32,000 bases of DNA, from positions 974,763 to 1,006,762 of the forward strand of contig OZ245922.1 in assembly GCA_965229705.1 (NCBI GenBank), in the 5' to 3' direction. Under the pieces are notes generated by a model. That model saw only the letters and a program-made list of their open reading frames with translations. It made no database searches and was not told the origin of the DNA. A program made the translations under genes and the position numbers. The stretch comes from Candidatus Saccharimonadota bacterium. Its GTDB lineage: Bacteria > Patescibacteriota > Gracilibacteria > BD1-5 > UBA6164. This document shows positions 5,165-16,880 of this stretch, piece by piece; the first letter of the stretch is position 1, and each line of letters begins with the position of its first letter.

Positions 5165-5560
5165 TTATTCACTTCAAAGATTTTCCTCCATTCTTTGCAT
5201 AATCTCTTTTGAAAGTGAGCTTTCATCTTGCTCCATGAGGTGTAGAAGAACTTCGCTTGATAGGACAATGACCTCAAGTTCTTGAGTGGCAACTACGCTT
5301 GCGCTTCGAACCTCTTCACTGAGAAGAGCCATTTCTCCAAAGATATCTCAAGTTCTCATGATATGCCGTGATCCTTGGGGTGTTGATACTTCGACAGATC
5401 CAGAAAGAATAATATATCATTCCCCATTTGGTTCCTCTCCTTGAGAAATAATAGTTTCTCCCTCGAGAAATTTCTTGGTACTACTAGCGGCGATAATCTC
5501 CTCTATCACTTCGTCTTTGAGACCTTGGAATATTTTGAGATGAGAATAATAGGAACTCAT
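5165..5560 (-). CDS. Stand-alone cyclic-nucleotide-binding (CAP/Crp effector-type) domain protein, 131 aa, no HTH
   Basis: ORF 5417..5641(-) extends through two in-frame TGAs, with a third near the 3' end, to TAA at 5165. It reads FQGLKDEVIEEII...KKFLEGETIISQGEEPNGE[G]YIILSGSVEV...[G]DIFGEMALLSEEVRSASVVA, the classic cNMP beta-roll with the FGE motif. I prefer ATG 5560 as the start. An upstream ATG at 5641 would add 27 aa that look like translated AT-rich leader. Confidence 0.65.
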
Positions 5561-5816: not shown

Positions 5817-6659
5817 ATGAGTATGCAACATTTTCTTGAAACTTTGAGTGTATTTTATATTTCTCCCTCTATGATGGGGATAGTTTTTGTGATGTTGTTT
5901 CTTTTAGGAATTTCTTTTCTTTTTACGAGATTCCCTGAGAGTAACTTTTCTCTTGTATGAGATATGTTTTACGAAAAAATATTTTCTTTTTTTGATGACC
6001 TTTTATGAAGCGACTTTTCTCTTGGTACAAAAACATTTATTGTGAGTCTCTTTTTCATTATTCTTTTCACAAATATTCTTGGAATATTTTTGGATTTTTT
6101 GGCTCCTATCTTTGGTGTGAGTGAAGGGGGCTTTGTTTTGGAAAAATTTATTCGTATTCCGAGCGCTGATGTTCAGTTTAATATGGCATTAGCAATCGTC
6201 AGTATGGTACTGCTCATCTATTTACAGTTTTTAGCTCTTGGAAAAAAAGATTTTTTTCTGAGCTATTTTCCGATATATGGGAAAGGATATCTAGAATTGC
6301 AGAAGGGAAGTATGAACCATATTTTGTATTGGATCGTTTTTCCTTTGGTCAAAATTTTTGATATTCTTATATCATTTTTTCTGAGTTTTTTGGATATTAT
6401 TGGCTTGTTTGCAAAGGTCATTTCTCTGTCGTTTCGTCTTTTTTGAAATATTGTTTCAGGCGGAGTTCTCCTAGCGATACTCATAGTTGCTCTTGGGAAC
6501 TTTACGGAGTCCCTTACAAGTTTTATGGGAGGGATTCATTTTCCTGTAATACTTCCGTTGATAGTATATGCGCAGTCACTGCTTATAGCAGTGATACAGG
6601 CTCTGGTATTTTCTCTCTTGGTTGCGATATTTATGAAGGTAAGTCAGGGGGAGAATTAG
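5817..6659 (+). CDS. atpB: F-type ATPase Fo subunit a, extra copy (a1) belonging to an F1-less a/c-c/b module, 280 aa
   Basis: The frame from ATG 5817 joins to ORF 6042..6446 and onward through three TGAs. The protein is polytopic and hydrophobic. It carries the stator-arginine motif LSFRLF[G]NIVSGGVLL and the C-terminal helix AVIQALVFSLLVAIF. Confidence 0.85.
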
Positions 6660-6737: not shown

Positions 6738-7187
6738 ATGGATATCTCGGCAATTTCACTTTGAGCGTCACTTTCAGTATGACTTGCAGGAATCTGAGTA
6801 GCTCTTGGTCAATCAGGACTTGCAAGAACAGCTATCGAAATGATAGGGAAGTCGCCACGACTCTCAGGAACTATGCTTATTTATACTATTCTTGGATTGG
6901 CACTTGTCGAAACAGCAATTATTTATGGACTGGTAGTAGCTTTTTCGATTATCGGAGCAACAGATGTAGGGAGTAGCCATCTTATAGGCGCTGGTCTTGT
7001 TATGGGTCTTACAGCTTTTTGAGCTGGTTATGGTGAAGGGAGACTTCTCTGCGCTGCTCTTGAAGCCGTAAATAGAAACCCAGAGAACAAGGCGCAAATA
7101 CTTCAGTATATGGTACTTTTTGCAGCACTTGTCGAGACTTCTGCTATATATGGACTGATTATTGCGATGAAACTCCTTAACGCTTAA
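6738..7187 (+). CDS. atpE: Fused tandem (double-hairpin, 4-TM) F/V-type proteolipid c-c subunit, 149 aa; both hairpins keep the carboxylate
   Basis: ATG 6738 to TAA 7185-7187, with four in-frame TGAs. Hairpin 1 reads GIGVALGQSGLARTAIEMIGKSPR...LALVETAIIYGLVVAF. Hairpin 2 reads AF[G]AGYGEGRLLCAALEAVNRNPE...AALVETSAIYGLIIAM. Each aligns position by position with a canonical c-subunit hairpin. Confidence 0.85.
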
Positions 7188-7192
7188 ATATC

Positions 7193-7660
7193 ATGCTCCA
7201 AATAGACATATACATTCTTTTTGCGCAAATAATCAATTTTTGAATTCTCTTTTTTATATTCAAAAAATATATTGCCAATGCGATGAATGCTCGAATACAG
7301 GAGCGCAGAAGAGAGCTAGAAAAACTCAAAAAAGCCGATGAACACTACGAACAAAAAATGTCTCTTGCACAACAACAAAAAAAAGAAATACTTGATACCG
7401 CTCGAGAAACAAGCTCAGCATTGATGAAAGAGTCAGAAGTGATTATACAACAAAAGGTAGGAACAATTATTGCAAAAGCCAAGCAAGAAGCTCTTGCTAT
7501 TTTGGAGAGTGGTAAACGCGAGCTGGAAAAAGACCGTCTTTCTATGCTCTCTCAGATGAAGTCTCATATTATTGATGTCTCACTCAAACTGAATGAGAAA
7601 ATGTTTGGAAAATGAAAAACCAATAAAGAGTTTTTAGAAAAAGAGTTAGAGAATTTATAG
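7193..7660 (+). CDS. atpF: F-type ATPase Fo subunit b, extra copy (b1), 155 aa
   Basis: ATG 7193 lies 5 nt after the c-c stop. One N-terminal TM segment (IYILFAQIINF[G]ILFFIF) is followed by a long charged coiled-coil region. The C-terminal block LKLNEKMF matches the LKLNEKLF of the second b gene. Two in-frame TGAs; stop TAG 7658-7660. Confidence 0.8.
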
Positions 7661-7674
7661 AAAGCTCTGAATTT

Positions 7675-7708
7675 AAACCCCGGGGTATAATACCCCGGGG
7701 TTTATTTT
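7675..7708 (+). terminator. Rho-independent terminator closing the a1/c-c/b1 unit
   Basis: AAACCCCGGGG (7675-7685) and CCCCGGGGTTT (7693-7703) form a perfect 11-bp GC-rich stem with loop TATAATA. A T-rich tail (ATTTT) follows. Confidence 0.8.
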
Positions 7709-7851
7709 GAGTGGAGGTTGGTGTGAACTCGAAGATTTTTTCTTCTTTACATACTCATAAATCCAATACAATAAAAAGTAAGATATATTCTCTTGCTTTT
7801 TCATGCTCAAAATCTCTCTCAAAATCTTTGTAATAATTCTCTGAAATTTAT

Positions 7852-7879
7852 TTGCGTTTCTCACTCTTTGACTTATACT
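7852..7879 (+). promoter_or_regulatory. Candidate sigma70-type promoter for the main atp operon
   Basis: TTGCGT (7852-7857), a 16-nt spacer, then TATACT (7874-7879), about 30 nt upstream of the small leader ORF. The call rests on pattern match only. Confidence 0.3.
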
Positions 7880-7910
7880 TGGGCGCGTTTTTAATGCAGA
7901 GGCACAATGG

Positions 7911-8018
7911 ATGATAATCATGATGGTTCTTTCCATACTTCCCCTGTACTGGTTTCTCATCAGCGTTATGAGAAATTTTCGAAAAGAATCAGAATTATTA
8001 TATAAAGATCCAGAGTAA
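7911..8018 (+). CDS. Small hydrophobic ORF (35 aa), possibly an AtpI/AtpZ-like operon-leader membrane peptide
   Basis: It reads MIIMMVLSILPLYWFLISVMRNFRKESELLYKDPE*. Its TAA (8016-8018) directly abuts the atpB ATG (8019), which suggests translational coupling. I recognise no family-level motif. Confidence 0.3.
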   Translation: MIIMMVLSILPLYWFLISVMRNFRKESELLYKDPE

Positions 8019-8858
8019 ATGGCTGAAGCATATCCTGAAAAAACAGATACCACTCCTATTGGAGAAACCTCTCACGCGCAGTCACATCATGAGTGACCAC
8101 ATATTCCTTTAATACAAGGAGAGACTGTGTATGGTCCGATTTCTAATACGACACTTACCAGTTTTATATTTTTGGTTATTGTCTTTTTTGTTGCTATTTC
8201 AGCAAAGAAAGCCCTCCTCAATAATAAAAAATCAAAACCCAAGCTCTTTTTTCTCACTTTTGTAAAATTTTTTGATGATCAGCTTCGAGATGCTTTTGGA
8301 AATAAGAAAATGGCAAGAGCCTATTTTCCCCTCATCGTAGGAATGTTTTTTCTCATACTTTTTGGAAATCTCTTTTGACTCCTCATAGACTGGTTTGGTC
8401 TTTCAGTTATGCCAAATATCCTTTACTACTTGAGACCTATGCATAGTGACATGAATACTACTCTTGTACTTGCGAGTATTACCGTTGTAATACTTCTCAC
8501 AATACAGATAAAAACTCATGGGACAGGAGGAATGCTCAAATCATATTTATGGAACTTTCAGGGAGACGGCATCATGTCAAAATGTATAAATGTCTTTGTT
8601 GGATGGCTTCATCTTATTGGTATTCCAGCGACTCTAGCATCTCTTTCTCTTCGTTTATTTGGAAATATTTTTGCGGGAATCGTTTTGATTGGAGTGATAA
8701 GTTATTTGATGGCATGAGCAACATGAGCAGTTTTTGAGATTGGAAGATTGGCAGTAATACCGTTTTGGTTTTTTGAAGTATTTGTCGCGCTGATTCAGGC
8801 GATCGTTTTTACATTTTTGATGATTGCATACTTTAAGTGAGCAAGCGAACACCACTAA
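8019..8858 (+). CDS. atpB: F-type ATP synthase Fo subunit a (a2), 279 aa
   Basis: ATG 8019. ORFs 8127..8378 and 8409..8717 join in frame through TGAs. Motifs are LSLRLFGNIFAGIVL (essential Arg) and ALIQAIVFTFLMIAYF. Stop TAA 8856-8858. Confidence 0.92.
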
Positions 8859-8927
8859 AAAGTAAGATACATATTTTCTCTTTATTTTTCAAGAAGAGAA
8901 AATATAATTTTATTTTTTATACTATAA

Positions 8928-9158
<231 letters not shown>

Positions 9159-9274
9159 ATATGCAGAAGCTTTGTGCTTCTTTGCTCTCGCTTTGCAGTG
9201 TGCTTCGCGGGATGAGTAAAAAGAATAGATGAGTTTTTACATGCAAAAAGTATTTTTATTATGTGAGCATCACT

Positions 9275-9283
9275 TGGTATAAT
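9275..9283 (+). promoter_or_regulatory. Candidate extended -10 promoter element (TGgTATAAT) in the atpE-atpF spacer
   Basis: TGGTATAAT at 9275-9283 lies 63 nt upstream of the atpF ATG, inside an unusually long 187-nt spacer. I see no good -35. Confidence 0.3.
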
Positions 9284-9345
9284 ATTTTTTACTCTGTATC
9301 TCATTATCTTTAAGTATTTTTAATAAGTAATTTATAATTGATTTT

Positions 9346-9846
9346 ATGGCAGCACAACAAGCCCAAGGACTTATAAATCTTCAATTTGTCACAGTAGAAA
9401 CATTTATTATTCAGTTTATTATACTCTTAGTAGTATTATGGGTATTGAATAAATTTGTTTTCAAACCATATCTTGCGTATCTCGATGAATGGGAGGCAAA
9501 ACAAGAAAAGGTGCAAGAAGACTATAATAACGCTGAAAAAATACTTGAAGAAAAGCGTCAACAGTGAGATAAGATGCTCGAGAATGCTCGCATGAAATGA
9601 AACCTACTCATAGAAGAGTCGGAAACACTTGCAAAACAAAAAAAGGAAAAAATACTTCTTGATGCTGAGACAGAAGCTCAAAATGCTGTAAACGCTGGAC
9701 AGAAACAAATAGAACAAGAACGCCGATGAATGCTTTCGGATATGAAAGAAAATGTTATGAACCTGGCACTTAAACTCAATGAGAAACTTTTTCAAGATGA
9801 AAAAGCCTCAAAAGATTTTATGAAAAAGCATATAGATACCCTTTAA
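9346..9846 (+). CDS. atpF: F-type ATP synthase Fo subunit b (b2), 166 aa
   Basis: ORF 9346..9567 continues through three TGAs to TAA 9844-9846. It has an N-terminal TM segment (FIIQFIILLVVLWVLNKFVF), a charged coiled coil and the C-terminal LKLNEKLF block. Confidence 0.88.
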
Positions 9847-9858
9847 TAACTGATATAC

Positions 9859-10206
9859 ATGCAATACATTGATACGCTTGATGCATCTTCCGCAACGGTA
9901 GTGCTTTGAGAACTCAAAAAATACGCTGAACTGAGAAAGAAGCTCGGAAAAAGAGGGAGAGATCTTTTTCATCGCAAACTTAGTGGTCAAAAACATCTTG
10001 TTGTAGAGCATGCGCAAAGCGTCTCTGAGGATATGGCGTGGCAGCACGCTGAGTGAGTATTTGAAAAAACTTTTTGACACAAGACAGAAAAACGGCAGGT
10101 AGTATTTGTTCCTCGATCATCTCTCAAAGGCTGAATGAAAGTATATCTTGATGATATGATGGTTGATGTGAGCTTTAAAAAAGTAGAAAAACACATGCAA
10201 AAATAA
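9859..10206 (+). CDS. atpH: F-type ATP synthase subunit delta (OSCP), unusually short at 115 aa
   Basis: The position between atpF and atpA supports the call. The C-terminal part reads VVFVPRSSLKG[G]MKVYLDDMMVDVSFKKVEKHM, which matches the delta C-terminal signature (..liGG..v..gd...D.S....l). Only about 35 aa precede the C-terminal domain. Confidence 0.6.
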
Positions 10207-10240: not shown

Positions 10241-11746
10241 ATGTCACAAGATGTATTACAGTCAATTATCTCTGAAATAGAGGCAAAGATAGATTCTACT
10301 GATTTTTCTCCTGAGATTGAAAATGTTGGAGAAGTTTTTTATCTCTGAGATGGAGTTGCAAAAGTATCAGGACTAAGAGGAGCAAAATACAATGAAGTCT
10401 TGGAGTTTGATTCTGGAGCAACAGGAGTAGCTCTCAATCTTGAGGATCACTTTGTTGGTGTAGTGATTCTCTCGGGTTTTGCTAGTGTAAAAGAGGGAGA
10501 AAAAGTTACTTCTACCGGGAAAACACTTGAGGTACCAGTTGGAAAGGAGATGATAGGAAGAGTTGTTGATGCTCTTGGAAGACCGATCGATGGACTTTGA
10601 GAGATAGCTACAAAGGAGCATTATCCAGTAGAGAGAACCGCAGAATGAGTAATGGCTCGTAAGTCGGTTCATGAACCTATGGAGACAGGTATCAAGGCGG
10701 TTGATGCGCTCGTACCTATTGGACGAGGACAGCGTGAACTTATTATTGGTGATAGGCAAACAGGAAAAACACAGGTAGCAATAGATACGATTCTCAACCA
10801 AAAAGGTCAAAATATGATGTGTGTGTATGTTGCTATTGGTCAAAAAGAAGGAAAAGTATCACGAACAGTAGAAGAACTCCGAAAGAGAGGGGCTATGGAC
10901 TACACTATTGTTGTTTCAGCAGGGGCTTCAGAACCAGCAGCAATGCAGTATCTTGCTCCATATACAGGGTGTGCTATGGCTGAGTACTTTATGTACAACA
11001 GTCAGCACGCACTTATTATTTATGATGATCTCTCAAAACAGGCAACGGCGTATCGTGAAATGTCTCTCCTCCTCAGAAGACCACCAGGACGAGAGGCGTA
11101 TCCGGGAGATGTATTTTTTCTTCACTCACGACTTTTGGAAAGAGCTGCCAAACTCTCAGATGAAAAAGGTGCTGGATCTATGACAGCGCTTCCGATTATT
11201 GAAACGCAAGCAGGTGATGTATCTGCTTATATCCCGACGAATGTGATTTCTATTACTGATGGGCAGATATTTCTCGACTCAAACCTCTTTAACTCAGGAC
11301 AAAAACCAGCGATATCAGTAGGTCTTTCAGTTTCACGAGTTGGATGATCAGCGCAGATGAAAGCCATGAAAAAAAATTCTGGAACACTCAAACTTGATCT
11401 TGCTCAGTATCGTGAACTTGCAGCATTTTCACAATTTGCTTCTGATCTTGATGAGGCAACGAGAGCCCAGCTAGACAGAGGAGCTCGTATGATGGAACTT
11501 CTCAAACAAGGGCTTAATGCTCCAGTACCAGTACCAAAACAGGTATGTGCACTCTATGCGGGAGGAAAAGGATATCTTGATGGTATTTCAGTAGAAAAGG
11601 TTTTGAAATTTGAAGAAGATTTACACGCTGCTCTTGATCAGGATAAGAAAGTACTTGAGACGCTTGCAAATGAGAAAAATCTCTCAGAAAATACAGAAAA
11701 AGATCTGGTAAAGATCATAGAAAAAGTAGTTGAGTTACATAAGTAA
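10241..11746 (+). CDS. atpA: F-type ATP synthase F1 subunit alpha, 501 aa
   Basis: ATG 10241. ORFs 10400..10600, 10652..11347 and 11357..11746 are in one frame, joined by TGAs at conserved Gly positions (RPIDGL[G]E, AE[G]V, SRVG[G]SAQ). Walker A is GDRQTGKT; also [41 protein letters not shown]. Confidence 0.97.
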
Positions 11747-11751
11747 AAAAC

Positions 11752-11883
11752 ATGTTCAATTCTGAAAAAGGAATCGTTGATTTTGACATAGATGGTAATG
11801 TTGTAGAGATAGAAATGTTTTGAGTAAAGAAGACTTTTGCGAAAAATAATATTTTTCTTGATCAAAAAGAATTAATAGCATAA
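11752..11883 (+). CDS. Short ORF (43 aa) resembling the C-terminal half of a DUF2283 (YuzE-like) protein; possibly a gene remnant
   Basis: It reads MFNSEKGIVDFDIDGNVVEIEMF[G]VKKTFAKNNIFLDQKELIA*. The block G-I-V-D-F-D-x-D-G-N-V-V-x-I-E resembles the DUF2283 core (vvvDfDe.G.vvGIEil). It starts 5 nt after the atpA stop. The resemblance is recalled from memory, not searched. Confidence 0.3.
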
Positions 11884-11890
11884 ATGTAAA

Positions 11891-11946
11891 CTTTTTACTT
11901 TTATCTTTTAACCTTAGACTTTCCACTTTAAACTTTCCACTATTGA
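11891..11946 (+). repeat. Array R1: four tandem 14-bp units (consensus CTTTyyACTTTAAA)
   Basis: The units are ctttttacttttat | cttttaaccttaga | ctttccactttaaa | ctttccactattga. The last unit overlaps the -35 of the cassette-1 promoter. Confidence 0.8.
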
Positions 11947-11969
11947 GAAATACAAAAAAAATATATAAT
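11943..11969 (+). promoter_or_regulatory. Candidate promoter of TA cassette 1
   Basis: TTGAGA (11943-11948), a 15-nt spacer, then TATAAT (11964-11969), with the antitoxin ATG 27 nt downstream. The whole block 11932-11999 recurs almost identically at 12472-12539. Confidence 0.5.
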
Positions 11970-11995
11970 AGAGGCAGTATTTTCTAAAAAAAATT

Positions 11996-12193
11996 ATGGC
12001 AACAATACAAGTTGAGTTACCTGAACAAGTACAAGATACATTTAAAATATCAGAAGAGCCAATAACAACAGAAGACTTTCTGACTCGTCTTGAACAAGCA
12101 GAAGAAGACATGTGGATTGATATAGAGTTAGATGAACCAATATCTATGCAAGAATTTTCCAGGATGCTAAAAAAAGATATTTATGGTTCCTAA
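11996..12193 (+). CDS. Putative antitoxin of TA cassette 1, 65 aa, acidic
   Basis: It reads MATIQVELPEQVQDTFKISEEPITTEDFLTRLEQAEEDMWIDIELDEPISMQEFSRMLKKDIYGS*. The N-terminus (xIxVxLPExV) is reminiscent of a ribbon-helix-helix beta-strand. The 3' end overlaps the toxin start by 11 nt. It is paralogous to ORF 12536..12730, sharing W-x-D-(I/V)-x-(L/F)-DEP-(I/V)-x-x-x-EFS-x-x-LKK-x-I-x-G. Confidence 0.6.
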   Translation: MATIQVELPEQVQDTFKISEEPITTEDFLTRLEQAEEDMWIDIELDEPISMQEFSRMLKKDIYGS

Positions 12194-12422
12194 ATGGCTG
12201 AAAATTATTCAAAAATCACCATATGAATCTCAACTACAAAAAGTTTCTGAGAATATCGTTTTAGGGGATTTTCGATGATTAGATATTAAGAAGATACGAT
12301 GAAAGTTTTGAATATATAGGTGTAGAGTGTGAGACTATAGAATTATTTTTGAGGAGAGAGTAAATGGTGAATACAAAATTCTCCACATAGGAGGAAGAGG
12401 AGATATTTACAAAAATATATAG
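12183..12422 (+). CDS. RelE/ParE-family type II toxin, 79 aa
   Basis: Missing from the standard-code track because it has four in-frame TGAs. It reads MVPKWLKIIQKSPYESQLQKVSENIVLGDFR[G]LDIKKIR[G]KF[G]IYRCRV[G]DYRIIFEERVNGEYKILHIGGRGDIYKNI*. The YR-x-RVGDYRII(F/Y)...I..I..RgdiYk signature is the RelE/ParE hallmark, and its invariant Gly is a TGA. Confidence 0.8.
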
Positions 12423-12426
12423 TATA

Positions 12427-12485
12427 CTTTCCACTTTAAACTTTCTACTTTAAACATCTTTTAACTTTTCGCTTTCCACTATTGA
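12427..12485 (+). repeat. Array R2: four 14-bp units with a 3-nt hiccup
   Basis: The units are ctttccactttaaa | ctttctactttaaa | (cat) cttttaacttttcg | ctttccactattga. The last unit again overlaps the -35. Confidence 0.8.
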
Positions 12486-12508
12486 GAAATACAAAAAAAG
12501 TATATAAT
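12482..12508 (+). promoter_or_regulatory. Candidate promoter of TA cassette 2
   Basis: TTGAGA (12482-12487), a 15-nt spacer, then TATAAT (12503-12508). The geometry matches cassette 1. Confidence 0.5.
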
Positions 12509-12535
12509 AGAGACAGTATTTTCTAAAAAGAAATT

Positions 12536-12730
12536 ATGGTTGTAATGGAGGTAGAGGTTCCACAAAAAATAGCAGAATCGTTTTTTGAATCAAAACAAAG
12601 AATTAGCTATGCTGACTTGAGGAAAAAAGAACAAGAAATCGAGGCGACAGAGTGGACGGACGTTATGTTTGATGAGCCTGTCCCTATAGAAGAATTTAGT
12701 GTCTACCTCAAAAAACAAATACATGGTTAA
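12536..12730 (+). CDS. Putative antitoxin of TA cassette 2, 64 aa
   Basis: It reads MVVMEVEVPQKIAESFFESKQRISYADLRKKEQEIEATEWTDVMFDEPVPIEEFSVYLKKQIHG*. It is a paralogue of 11996..12193 and overlaps the downstream toxin ATG (12723) in the same way. Confidence 0.6.
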   Translation: MVVMEVEVPQKIAESFFESKQRISYADLRKKEQEIEATEWTDVMFDEPVPIEEFSVYLKKQIHG

Positions 12731-12960
12731 AAAATGGCAGAAAACGATAAAAAAAGCTCCGAATAAAGAAAAAATTAATGAAGTAATTGATAAGATATTT
12801 AGTACAAGATTTTCAGGAATTAGATATCGATATACTTCATGGAAAAGAAAAGCACTTTCGTTGTAGAATATGAGATTTTAGAATCATATTTTCCAAGAAA
12901 AATGGAAAAATAGAGATAGAGGGAGCCGGACATAGATGAGATGTTTACAAAAATATATAG
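12723..12960 (+). pseudogene. RelE/ParE-family toxin copy 2, disrupted by an apparent +1 frameshift in a T-run near 12798-12800
   Basis: The N-terminal frame (ATG 12723) reads MVKKWQKTIKKAPNKEKINEVIDKI, colinear with toxin 1, but runs to TAG at 12864. The +1 frame from about 12799 reads LVQDFQELDIDILHGKEKHFRCRI[G]DFRIIFSKKNGKIEIEGAGHR[G]DVYKNI*, ending at 12960. Deleting one T from ATATTTAG restores a full-length RelE-like ORF colinear with toxin 1. Confidence 0.65.
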
Positions 12961-12964
12961 TATA

Positions 12965-13048
12965 CTTTTAACCTTAGACTTTCCACTTTAAACTTTTAAC
13001 TTGTAACTTTAAGCTTTAAACTTTTAACTTATAACTTGTAACTTCCCG
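12965..13048 (+). repeat. Array R3: six tandem 14-bp units ending at the atpG start codon
   Basis: The units are cttttaaccttaga | ctttccactttaaa | cttttaacttgtaa | ctttaagctttaaa | cttttaacttataa | cttgtaacttcccG, and the final G is the first base of the atpG GTG. The first 32 nt (12965-12996) are identical to 11905-11936 in R1. Confidence 0.85.
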
Positions 13049-13953
13049 TGGCAAACGCAAAAGAAATAGGACGAAAAATTTGAAGTATTAAAAATACCTC
13101 AAAAATCACCAAAGCAATGGAACTCATCTCAACAGTGAAGATGAAGAAAGCTCAAGACCTTGCAATGCAAAAAAAAGACTTTGTGATAGAAATGCTGAAA
13201 GTATTTTCTCGTATTGAAGGTTTTTTAGAAGATTTTTCATATTTTCAAAAATATGAGAGTCAGAAAACTCTGGGGATCATTATCACTTCAAATAAAGGTT
13301 TATGTGGAGGGTATAATGTAAATGTTTTAAAAAAAGTACATGAGTACACAAAACAAAATCCAGATGAAGATATGGACTATATCAGTCTTGGGAAAAAAGC
13401 AGCAGCCTTTGTAACTCGAACAGGAAATACGCTTCATGCAGATTTTTCTCCAGAGTATACAGATAATATTGATACACGCTTTGTAAAATCTCTCACGCAG
13501 ACTATGTATGATGCCTATCTTTCTGGAAAATATGGGAAGGTTGTAGTGTTTTATAACTACTATGTCAACTCTATTAAACAAATTCCGGTTGCCCGAGAGT
13601 TTCTTCCTATTGATGCTCAGGGAGTACGAAACTATCTTGAGAGCATTATTGATGACGAAAAGGTTCTTGAAGATATAGGAAGCGAGACTATAGATTATAT
13701 TATAGAACCAAGCTCAGAGTCTATTGCTGATGATCTTATACCAATGATTCTTGATATGATGTTTTATGATATTTTACTTCAGGCAAAAGCCTCAGAACAC
13801 TCAGCAAGAATGGTTGCGATGAAAGCAGCAAAAGACAATTCTCAAAAAATTGCGGATATGCTCACACTGCAGTTTAATAAAGCCCGCCAAGGACTCATTA
13901 CTAGAGAAGTATCTGAGATAGTCGCAGGTGTTGAATCTCTCAAGGATACCTAA
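13048..13953 (+). CDS. atpG: F-type ATP synthase F1 subunit gamma, 301 aa, GTG start
   Basis: Starting at GTG 13048 the N-terminus reads (M)ANAKEIGRKI[G]SIKNTSKITKAMELISTVKMKKAQ, the canonical gamma N-terminus. The C-terminus reads ...ARQGLITREVSEIVAGVESL. ORF 13117..13953 is the part downstream of the TGA. Confidence 0.93.
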
Positions 13954-14022
13954 CAATTCTTGAGAGAAGTATTTGAAAAACACGATACAAGAAAGATTTT
14001 ATTTTTTTACACATATCTTCGT

Positions 14023-14475
14023 ATGAAATATATAAGCATAGCTCTCAAGATGATGATAAATATCGCGTTATATTGTATATATGTGATTTGTATTTCTTTT
14101 GTTTTTTCTTTCTTTTTCCCTCTAGCACTCAGACTTATGGGAAAAAATATTCCACACTACGCAGATCCAGTTTTTGTCAAAATCCAAGTATTTATTGCAG
14201 CTCTTGTACTCCTATTGTCCCTTATTTTTCGTAAATATCTCTACACTTCCTGTAAGGATAAAAAATATCTTTCTGCAAAAAATCAGAAATCTAGTAGTAA
14301 TCCAACAACTACTCAAGCTCATAATCATCAAAAAACAGTGAAAAAAACGGTAAAAACACCAGCAAAGAAAACTCCTGCAAAAGCAAAAAAACCAGTAAAG
14401 AAAAGAGCAAGTTCTCAGGCAAAAACAAAAAAAGAAGATGATATGAAAATATATGTAGAAAAAGAAATAAAATAA
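14023..14475 (+). CDS. Hypothetical membrane protein with a Lys/Pro/Ala-rich basic tail, 150 aa
   Basis: ATG 14023 lies within ORF 13960..14475. There are two predicted TM helices (INIALYCIYVICISFVFSFFF and VFIAALVLLLSLIF). The tail reads KTVKKTVKTPAKKTPAKAKKPVKKRASSQAKTKKEDD, resembling a histone-H1-like AKP repeat. I recognise no family. Confidence 0.5.
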   Translation: MKYISIALKMMINIALYCIYVICISFVFSFFFPLALRLMGKNIPHYADPVFVKIQVFIAALVLLLSLIFRKYLYTSCKDKKYLSAKNQKSSSNPTTTQAHNHQKTVKKTVKTPAKKTPAKAKKPVKKRASSQAKTKKEDDMKIYVEKEIK

Positions 14476-15045: not shown

Positions 15046-16437
<1,392 letters not shown>

Positions 16438-16448
16438 TAATAAACACT

Positions 16449-16880
16449 ATGAAACTTAGCGTATTGTCATTTTCAGGAGAAAACTTTTTTCATGAAAATA
16501 TTCTCTCTGTGACACTCATGACAAAGTCATGAGAAATAACCATTCTCGATAATCATGCTCCAATGATTGCATTGATTGAACCTTGTGTTCTTTATACGAA
16601 ATATAAAGATGAAAATGGTATTGAGCAAAGGGATGATTTTGCAATAGGAACGGGTGTAGTCGAGATACATAATTCGAGCGTAAAAATCATGTCAGATATG
16701 CTTATTGATGTGGAAGAGGTAGATCTTGATCAGGCGCAACTTGCAAAAGAGAGAGCTCTAGAACTTATGGAGAAATACAAGCACAGAAAAGATAGGGTTG
16801 ATATGGAAAAGTTTATTGAGGCTGAGGATCAGCTCCTCAAATCTATAGCGCAGCTCAAGCTCTATGATCTGAAAAAATAG
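16449..16880 (+). CDS. atpC: F-type ATP synthase F1 subunit epsilon, 143 aa
   Basis: ATG 16449 follows atpD. It reads MKLSVLSFSGENFFHENILSVTLMTKS[G]EITILDNHAPMIALIEP, the epsilon beta-sandwich motif (G..gIl..HaP.i..L), followed by a helical C-terminal domain. Confidence 0.9.

Follow-up and report, generated by a model that had tools for sequence, protein, structure and literature searches.

It is an open question by what means members of the Candidate Phyla Radiation (CPR, Patescibacteria), lacking a respiratory chain, keep their membranes energised. The lineage considered here is reported to lack such a chain, and an ATP synthase locus of Candidatus Saccharimonadota bacterium (Gracilibacteria, BD1-5, UBA6164 in the GTDB lineage; assembly GCA_965229705.1, contig OZ245922.1, forward-strand positions 974,763 to 1,006,762) bears directly on the problem. 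Within this stretch of 32,000 nucleotides (nt), hereafter the window, a single set of genes for the catalytic head F1 stands beside two sets of genes for the membrane sector Fo: a canonical set, a2-c-b2, and a set named a1-cc-b1, in which the rotor subunit cc (6738-7187) consists of two c hairpins fused in one chain. Does the fused-c set form an Fo of its own for the same F1, and would its rotor carry a different ion?

We consider it highly probable that a1-cc-b1 is a separate, alternative Fo sharing the F1. The locus would then pair a single F1 with two membrane modules that are interchangeable and terminated separately, and the rotors of the two would be chemically very different. The fuller account, in which a second Fo sharing F1 carries a Na+-capable cc ring and the canonical ring carries H+, is the one that we favour, with moderate confidence.

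Two sets of Fo genes beside one F1

Read under genetic code 25 (TGA=Gly), which is used across the genome, the locus begins with a gene on the minus strand for a cyclic nucleotide monophosphate (cNMP)-binding protein, followed on the plus strand by a1, cc and b1, a terminator-like hairpin, a small open reading frame (ORF) with two transmembrane helices, a2, c and b2, and finally delta, alpha, gamma, beta and epsilon (protein lengths in amino acids, aa):

5165-5560, minus strand: stand-alone cNMP-binding domain protein, 131 aa from the second Met (PF00027, E=1.5e-20)
5817-6659, plus strand: a1, F-type a subunit of the fused-c module, 280 aa (PF00119, E=1.4e-22)
6738-7187, plus strand: cc, fused double-hairpin c, 149 aa (two PF00137 domains, E=1.3e-28)
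7193-7660, plus strand: b1, F-type b subunit of the fused-c module, 155 aa (PF00430, E=1.4e-10)
7674-7704, plus strand: intrinsic-terminator-like hairpin, 14-bp stem with 8 G-C pairs, then a T-run
7803-8018, plus strand: small ORF with two transmembrane helices, 71 aa, heading the canonical operon (no significant Pfam match)
8019-8858, plus strand: a2, canonical a subunit, 279 aa (PF00119, E=2.7e-37)
8937-9158, plus strand: canonical single-hairpin c, 73 aa from ATG (PF00137, E=2.9e-17)
9346-9846, plus strand: b2, canonical b subunit, 166 aa (PF00430, E=2.1e-15)
9859-10206, plus strand: short delta, 115 aa, single copy (weak PF00213 match, E=0.027, profile positions 100-163)
10241-11746, plus strand: alpha, 501 aa, single copy (74-90% identity in relatives; Pfam ATP-synt_ab on homologues)
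13048-13953, plus strand: gamma, 301 aa, single copy (PF00231 on homologues)
15046-16437, plus strand: beta, 463 aa, single copy (84-90% identity in relatives)
16449-16880, plus strand: epsilon, 143 aa, single copy (PF02823 on homologues)

Duplication at the locus is confined to a, c and b, and delta, alpha, gamma, beta and epsilon are present there in single copy. The two a subunits are about 28% identical and the two b subunits about 32%.

The dual layout of the window recurs at loci L002, L004, L001+L005, L013, L014, L015 and L017. A perfect, GC-rich 14-bp palindrome followed by a T-run (7674-7704) lies 14 nt after the b1 stop codon, in a genome of 36% GC, and a stem-loop with a T-run follows b1, with differing sequences, in all eight dual-module loci, compared with 0-3 of 7-8 loci, mostly weak, at other gene junctions. 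Because this terminator-like element recurs after b1 in every dual-module locus, a1-cc-b1 is most likely its own transcription unit; a promoter scan was uninformative (11 matches against 13.7 expected). The cNMP-binding gene is divergent from a1 in 12 distinct loci, among them one where the fused-c module stands alone (L003) and two where it is the only Fo (L023 and L040). Its product has no DNA-binding domain and is a candidate regulator or direct partner of the fused-c module. At L013, which is otherwise syntenic, a 610-aa ORF with no Pfam match (8127-9959 of that locus) sits between a1 and cc.

Fused-c modules in relatives

The order a1-cc-b1 is kept in every context seen, b1 always following cc in the relatives. 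In many of these the module is the sole Fo: an a1-type a, a fused c and a b run directly into delta-alpha-gamma-beta, with no other a or c, at L016, L021, L023, L025, L030, L033, L037, L038, L040 and others. At L016 an a1-type a, cc and b precede delta-alpha-gamma-RNaseH-beta, and a2-c-b2 is absent. A metagenome scan under code 25 placed such fused-only operons at many loci whose alpha is 74-78% identical to that of the window, and also in distant lineages with an alpha of 57-59% identity. The module also stands alone, at L003 and at L008-L011. Aligned to the a subunit of Bacillus PS3 and to its own family, a1 keeps the essential Arg207 (LSFRLFGN) and the helix-6 Gln261. Since the module is the sole Fo before the F1 genes in relatives and these two residues are kept, a1-cc-b1 is strongly favoured as a true Fo for this F1. 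At L018 and L022, a1-cc-b1 is followed by a1-(6-hairpin c)-b1-delta-alpha, with two a1-type modules in one locus; duplicated Fo modules for one F1 thus recur in a second configuration.

An earlier note on this DNA, made from the sequence without database searches, had offered two Fo sectors of different ion specificity, or a hybrid ring. Two sectors with different rotor chemistry are now strongly favoured, given the module's own a and b, the terminator-like element after b1 and its role as sole Fo in relatives; the hybrid ring is disfavoured, for reasons given below. The note's name for the canonical module, the main operon, is doubtful, since the fused-c module is the usual or only Fo in the wider clade.

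Fold and conservation of the fused c subunit

The cc gene runs from ATG to TAA on the plus strand and is intact only under code 25. Its four in-frame TGA codons, at residues 9, 15, 20 and 95, all fall on Gly positions of the helix-1 GxGxGxG motif. Many public homologues are mistranslated, with Trp at TGA positions (a code-4 mistranslation), where properly translated relatives have Gly, which indicates that the codon is read as Gly and not as Trp. Under standard-code calls nearly every gene of the genome is broken up: all large genes of the window, those for ATP synthase alpha and beta included, are interrupted by TGA under the standard bacterial code, and the long-ORF content of the window is about fivefold higher with TGA as sense.

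The fusion described in the earlier note is confirmed by the two PF00137 domains. With both stretches in one chain (hairpin 1 at about residues 1-74, hairpin 2 at about 78-149), four predicted helices, a membrane-embedded carboxylate in the C-terminal helix of each hairpin (E58, E133), F-type a and b neighbours and, in relatives, F1 genes directly after the module, cc belongs among double-hairpin F-type c subunits. AlphaFold 2 gave a confident model of P0004, a correctly translated homologue 77% identical to cc (predicted local distance difference test score 94.9; helices at 5-38, 40-72, 78-112 and 114-146), which predicts a four-helix double hairpin for cc. The best structural match of that model is Acetobacterium woodii c1 (4bem_J; TM 0.87, root-mean-square deviation 2.0 A), V-type proteolipids matching more weakly, and the best sequence match of cc is the same subunit (PDB 4BEM chain J, E=4.9e-13, spanning both hairpins). 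A protein search returned some 65 clusters of proteins 146-151 aa long, whose identity to cc ranges between 97% and 38%; where a cluster has a name, which is so for few, it is ATP synthase F0 subunit C of Candidatus Gracilibacteria.

The register of the ion-site residues had been set by hand in the earlier note against Ilyobacter tartaricus c, from the strings GQS...VETAIIY and GEG...VETSAIY in cc and GVG...AEAIAIY in the canonical c, all of which are present. In both hairpins the loop Pro follows position 32 by 15 residues and precedes the Glu by 18, the same spacing as in I. tartaricus c. In an independent HMMER alignment, the GQG Gln of A. woodii c1 and c2/3 stands opposite both Q25 and E100; opposite E58 and E133 stands the Glu of these subunits, or, in c1 hairpin 2 (opposite E133), a Gln. 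Alignment and spacing together uphold the hand register of both hairpins, with no shift.

Whether the fusion is conserved in relatives, which the earlier note had left to be checked, was addressed by comparing 62 family sequences, over which residues of cc were counted as follows:

Position 58: Glu in 61 of 62
Position 133: Glu in 62 of 62
Position 59: Ser or Thr in 62 of 62
Position 63: Tyr in 60 of 62
Position 138: Tyr in 62 of 62
Position 100: Glu in 56, Gln in 6
Position 25: Gln in 42, Glu in 19
Position 60: Ala in 48 of 62
Position 134: Thr or Ser in 44, Val or Ala in 18
Position 135: variable, with Ser in 22, Val in 16, Ala in 10 and Ile in 10

The fusion is conserved, and so is the carboxylate in each hairpin, unlike in A. 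woodii c1, as the note had observed. Conservation across the 62 members indicates that the site features of cc are not due to chance. Within the clade of the window, Thr59, Thr134 and Ser135 are kept.

Two predicted alternating ion sites

In the I. tartaricus ring, Gln32 and Glu65 are contributed by one subunit and the Val63 carbonyl, Ser66 and Tyr70 by its neighbour; Thr67 corresponds to Gln65 of Enterococcus hirae, on the same helix as Thr64, Leu61 and Tyr68 (PMC2359735). The ion site of Fusobacterium nucleatum is likewise shared between neighbouring hairpins (PMC3692424). The hairpin-by-hairpin reading of the sites was rejected because the literature places each site between two adjacent hairpins. 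It follows that cc has two alternating site types. Site I, between protomers, comprises Q25 and E58 with L131 (carbonyl), T134, S135 and Y138; site II, within the protomer, comprises E100 and E133 with L56 (carbonyl), T59, A60 and Y63.

Every residue of the published Na+ motif (Mulkidjanian 2008; ProAD) is required, position 67 holding the water ligand. For multi-hairpin subunits, the ProAD rule defines a Na+ hairpin as [Q/E]...E together with [S/T]-[S/T/Q]-x-x-Y on the previous hairpin (PMC11738941 supplement). In cc, [Q/E]32 with Glu65 is present as Q25/E58 and as E100/E133, and [S/T]66 with Tyr70 of the previous hairpin as T134/Y138 and as T59/Y63; at [S/T/Q]67, S135 fits in site I and A60 does not in site II. 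Site I therefore passes the complete motif and equals the Q-E-T-T-Y of A. woodii c2/3 with a Thr-to-Ser change. The ProAD rule would label cc Na+, since at least one site passes. The claim that both hairpins carry Na+-type residues is thus borne out for the site formed by Q25, E58, T134, S135 and Y138, and falls short for that formed by E100, E133, T59, A60 and Y63, which lacks the position-67 hydroxyl.

The Glu pair of hairpin 2, which the earlier note had likened to the F. nucleatum Na+ motif, belongs to this incomplete site, and the likeness does not hold: the F. nucleatum two-carboxylate motif comprises Glu32, Glu65, Ser66, Thr67 and Tyr70, and site II has Ala60 at the Thr67 equivalent. 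The two-carboxylate motif is in any case not diagnostic of Na+, because protonated Glu32 is energetically equivalent to Gln32 and such sites also occur in H+ rings (PMC3692424), and because the similar Burkholderia pseudomallei ring is H+-selective. The residues of site II are the best conserved across the family, and EE/SAY is the commonest site overall. Having Ala at position 67, rather than Leu, Ile, Val or Met, may leave room for a water ligand.

The site residues of the canonical c, V-E-A-I-Y, are fully hydrophobic, and the pattern [V/I]-E-A-[I/V]-Y holds in all eight dual-module loci examined; on these residues the canonical c is of the H+ type, as the earlier note had supposed.

A mechanism can be proposed from these features. 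The module a1-cc-b1 would be a second, separately transcribed Fo working on the same single-copy F1 and stalk genes as a2-c-b2, and the cell would have two isoforms of its ATP synthase/ATPase whose rotors differ chemically. The rotor built of cc would be a ring of n fused double hairpins in which types 1 and 2 strictly alternate, with 2n Glu sites, the fusion hard-wiring the two alternating site types. In site I, S135 would ligate through water; in site II, E100 would presumably be protonated and Gln-like; and the sites would load and unload against Arg207 of a1. The polar cc ring would be the Na+-capable isoform (Na+ or Na+/H+-promiscuous), the hydrophobic canonical ring strictly H+. Both isoforms would probably run mainly as ATP-driven ion pumps, or use whichever gradient is available.

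Which ion would the fused rotor carry?

Na+ coupling is plausible for one of the two alternating site types. We put the proposition that Na+ is translocated at at least one site type of the cc ring close to evenly balanced, slightly on the doubtful side. Of 5 distinct dual-module patterns, 4 have complete Na+ sites, and of 14 fused-only operons, 1 does (p=0.006 by Fisher's test, with no correction for phylogeny); this enrichment beside an H+-type Fo fits sub-functionalisation. Where a genome has several rotary ATPases, H+ and Na+ types are usually found together (PMC11738941). Were the polar fused rotor to use Na+, Na+ and H+ gradients could both be built or exploited with one catalytic head.

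Several observations weigh against Na+ coupling. The enrichment test is small and phylogenetically confounded, and site II, with Ala60 and no hydroxyl at position 67, fails the strict motif; the ring cannot turn on Na+ alone unless site II also binds Na+. The B. pseudomallei ring, with E-E-T-M-Y, was predicted to use Na+ and was measured to be H+-selective (PMC5376962), and all c-rings are reported to be intrinsically H+-selective. Fused rings of relatives often have plainly hydrophobic sites (QE/VVY, ME/SAY, RE/VTY), which makes H+ coupling the probable ancestral state of the fused-c Fo. In a1 no Na+ signature was identified; apparent covariation with ring polarity at the position seven residues before the helix-6 Gln (Q-7) failed its control. 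In a1 there is no acidic residue at Q-7 (Ser254) or at the position nine residues after the essential Arg (R+9, Gly216), and one or both of these positions are acidic in all the solved H+ a subunits aligned. Members of the a1 family have Ser/Gly or Glu at Q-7, in loose correspondence with ring polarity, and an invariant Gln at Q-8. As an ion marker Q-7 was rejected, because a subunits beside a single-hairpin QESSY c, which has the full Na+ motif, carry Asp there. Ion specificity is accordingly not settled by sequence, given that the similar motif of B. pseudomallei proved H+-selective.

A dual-ion rotor is also conceivable, in which Na+-selective (Q,E/T,S,Y) and H+-preferring (E,E/T,A,Y) sites alternate, so that n Na+ and n H+ would pass per turn at a fixed 1:1 ratio through one a subunit; we regard it as improbable. 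Such a motor would be driven by, or build, the sum of the sodium- and proton-motive forces, and the same F1 would alternatively dock on a pure H+ Fo, perhaps by way of the cNMP-binding protein. The permuted clade and the chains of 4 to 13 hairpins described below would then be other ways to fix the order of non-identical sites.

Poly-hairpin and permuted rotors

The c gene of fused-only relatives is often one long ORF, encoding the following numbers of hairpins:

4 hairpins: L021, L023, L025, L038 and L040
6 hairpins: L018/L022, L030 and L036
7 hairpins: L045/L046
8 hairpins: L037
12 hairpins: L033 (5965-8658 of that locus, 897 aa)
13 hairpins: protein P0099, 968 aa, from public gene calls

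The in-frame TGA codons of these genes are scattered over Gly positions and do not mark unit boundaries, and the alpha and beta genes of the same loci are also TGA-rich; on both grounds the long ORFs are not read-through artefacts. An exhaustive profile search also found long c forms in independent public gene calls, at 968, 528, 524, 447, 375 and 299 aa. The 968-aa protein has 13 hairpins with a Glu in each. Every hairpin of the poly-hairpin c proteins keeps its Glu, and position 32 of the type-1 hairpins is in some cases Arg, Met, His or Ile. A single chain of up to 897-968 aa would make up half or the whole of a rotor ring.

In the P0062 clade (L008-L011) the fusion is circularly permuted, with the type 2 hairpin first and type 1 second. 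Its members have the trio a-cc-b standing alone, with a pseudouridine synthase gene next after it and F1 genes absent within 10 kb; the clade is very widespread, one member occurring on 375 contigs. The permuted fusion gives the same alternating ring, which supports alternation as the functional point. The family offers F-type rotors in which two different ion sites alternate in an order set by covalent linkage, a naturally occurring circular permutation and whole-ring chains, and its constructs suit questions on site order, ring size and ion selectivity.

Alternative explanations

The alternative that deserves most attention accepts two Fo modules and has both coupled to H+, the polar residues of cc tuning the pKa of the Glu or its gating, and the isoforms differing in ring size (and hence in ion/ATP ratio), in preferred direction or in regulation. 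It agrees with the failed Na+ prediction for the very similar B. pseudomallei site, with the occurrence of two-carboxylate sites in H+ rings and the equivalence of Glu32 to Gln, with the missing position-67 hydroxyl of site II, with fused-only relatives whose hydrophobic sites must run the whole enzyme, and with a Vampirococcus study that judged the Absconditabacteria c subunit to be of the H+ type. It sits poorly with the complete Na+ set of site I, which is of the same kind as that of the experimentally Na+-coupled A. woodii c2/3; with the retention of Thr59, Thr134 and Ser135 in the clade of the window, beside a co-resident canonical ring of maximal hydrophobicity; with the enrichment of complete sites where an H+ Fo co-occurs; and with the small Ala at position 67, which may admit a water ligand. 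On balance we hold an all-H+ pair of modules to be rather unlikely. Against the favoured account it also counts that sharing of F1 by two Fo modules is drawn from gene content only.

Two further explanations give up one of the two Fo sectors or the link to F1. In a single hybrid complex, cc and the single-hairpin c would share one heteromeric ring, with b1 and b2 as a b/b' heterodimer. The c1 + c2/3 ring of A. woodii is a precedent for mixing double and single hairpins in an F-type ring, b/b' heterodimers are known in cyanobacteria and chloroplasts, and the two modules adjoin on the same strand. However, a hybrid leaves unexplained two complete a subunits, each with its essential Arg, as well as the conserved terminator between the modules; a single a and a single b enclose all the c genes in A. 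woodii, whereas at this locus either c type is accompanied by an a and a b of its own; and many relatives have no Fo other than the fused-c module, which is also found by itself at other places in genomes. These points make the hybrid very unlikely. A role without F1, such as that of a regulated device in the membrane, rotary or ion-conducting, with the cNMP-binding protein as its gate, would account for the a-cc-b trios of L003 and of the permuted clade L008-L011, which stand alone with F1 genes absent within 10 kb, and for the conserved cNMP-binding partner. We find it extremely improbable: b1 has the full length of a peripheral-stalk subunit, and such a subunit is not known to do anything but hold F1; the cc loops retain the R/K-x-P motif, through which c contacts gamma and epsilon; and the same module is joined directly to the F1 operon in many relatives.

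The canonical module and the rest of the locus

Aligned to solved a subunits, a2 keeps Arg212 and Gln260 and has Glu253 at Q-7. The small ORF at 7803-8018 is also found in L002, L004 and L005, in the position usual for AtpI/AtpZ, and may share their function. By parsimony, the distribution of the two modules suggests that the fused-c Fo is the usual Fo of the clade and that the canonical a2-c-b2 was added in the subclade of the window. Both a2 and b2 contain in-frame TGAs, so the canonical module, if acquired, is not a recent gain; the reverse order of events is possible too, given the small leader ORF that precedes a2.

The delta gene (9859-10206) matches, weakly, only the C-terminal part of OSCP and is of the same short size and in the same place in all relatives, standing right behind b1 in fused-only operons; its N-terminal alpha-binding domain appears, on this match, to be missing in the clade. 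As a single copy, delta would serve both Fo modules. The gap between alpha and gamma (11747-13047) holds a 1.3-kb insertion, the gaps of relatives being about 20-100 nt. The insertion comprises a tandem duplication of about 540 bp with two acidic paralogous small ORFs (11996-12193 and 12536-12730) and three clusters of ACTTTnn repeats with a period of 7 nt (11873-11949, 12409-12457 and 12947-13058). Between gamma and beta lie, on the plus strand, genes for a membrane protein with a Lys/Pro/Thr-rich tail (13960-14475) and an RNase H-like protein (PF13456/PF00075; 14620-15018); both are kept in this place in several relatives and are unusual content for an atp operon.

Comparison with known systems

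To our knowledge, whole rings of 12-13 hairpins in one polypeptide were previously known only from the archaeon Methanopyrus. CPR genome papers treat the enzyme as one ordinary F-ATP synthase and judge "the" c subunit to be of the H+ type (PMC8080830, PMC6851277). In the literature searched on the ATP synthase of Gracilibacteria and Absconditabacteria we found only generic mentions and one analysis of a c subunit (H+-type), and we found no published description of the dual-Fo/single-F1 layout, the inter-module terminator, the cNMP-binding partner, the circular permutation or F-type poly-hairpin rotors. The bare two-site fused F-type c is already catalogued: Fig. S3B of the ProAD supplement (PMC11738941) contains a class of two-hairpin F-type c with one H+ and one Na+ site, into which cc falls by ProAD's own rule, one site passing and one failing. 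ProAD presents the class as a logo only, and we found there no taxon, operon context, dual-Fo layout or poly-hairpin F-type forms.

The closest match by sequence and structure, A. woodii c1 (4BEM chain J), is like cc an F-type double hairpin of the Na+-type ligand family (Q, E, T, T/S, Y). In c1, however, the carboxylate of hairpin 2 is lost (Gln), leaving one site per two hairpins, whereas cc keeps both Glu and two sites. Moreover, c1 is a minority part of its ring (1 copy with 9 single-hairpin c), and its gene lies with theirs between a single a and a single b; cc is the sole c type of a module with an a and a b of its own and is separated from a2-c-b2 by a conserved terminator. With both Glu kept and its own a1 and b1, cc is not an A. 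woodii-type F/V hybrid rotor subunit.

Among single-hairpin rings, the c11 ring of F. nucleatum (PDB 3ZK1; PMC3692424) shares Glu32, Glu65, Ser/Thr66 and Tyr70 with site II (E100, E133, T59, Y63), but its Thr67 holds the water ligand where site II has Ala60, and its sites are identical. The closest characterised analogue of site II is the N-type c17 ring of B. pseudomallei (E30, E61, T62, M63, Y66; PMC5376962), which differs in its single hairpin, its complete, separate N-ATPase operon and the bulky Met at position 67, where cc has a small Ala. Archaeal A-type K/c subunits, with two hairpins and two sites in Methanothermobacter and 13 hairpins in Methanopyrus kandleri, are fused without loss of sites, as in the cc family (PMC2359735, PMC9171764), and the 12-13 hairpins per chain of cc relatives parallel M. 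kandleri. Those subunits belong to A/V-type enzymes with subunit I, whereas the partners of cc are F-type a (PF00119), b (PF00430) and F1, and the hairpins of the cc family are of two alternating, non-identical types, unlike the archaeal fusions. A V/A-type proteolipid was rejected on the same partners and on the weaker structural matches of V-type proteolipids.

An N-ATPase (atpDCQRBEFAG) was rejected as well, no second set of beta, epsilon, AtpQ, AtpR, alpha and gamma being present in the locus. Some genomes are reported to have two complete rotary ATPases that differ in ion specificity (F+N, F+A; Dibrova 2010, ProAD). In such genomes H+- and predicted Na+-type rotors coexist, as they may here, but there whole ATPases are doubled, whereas at this locus the doubling extends only to a, c and b.

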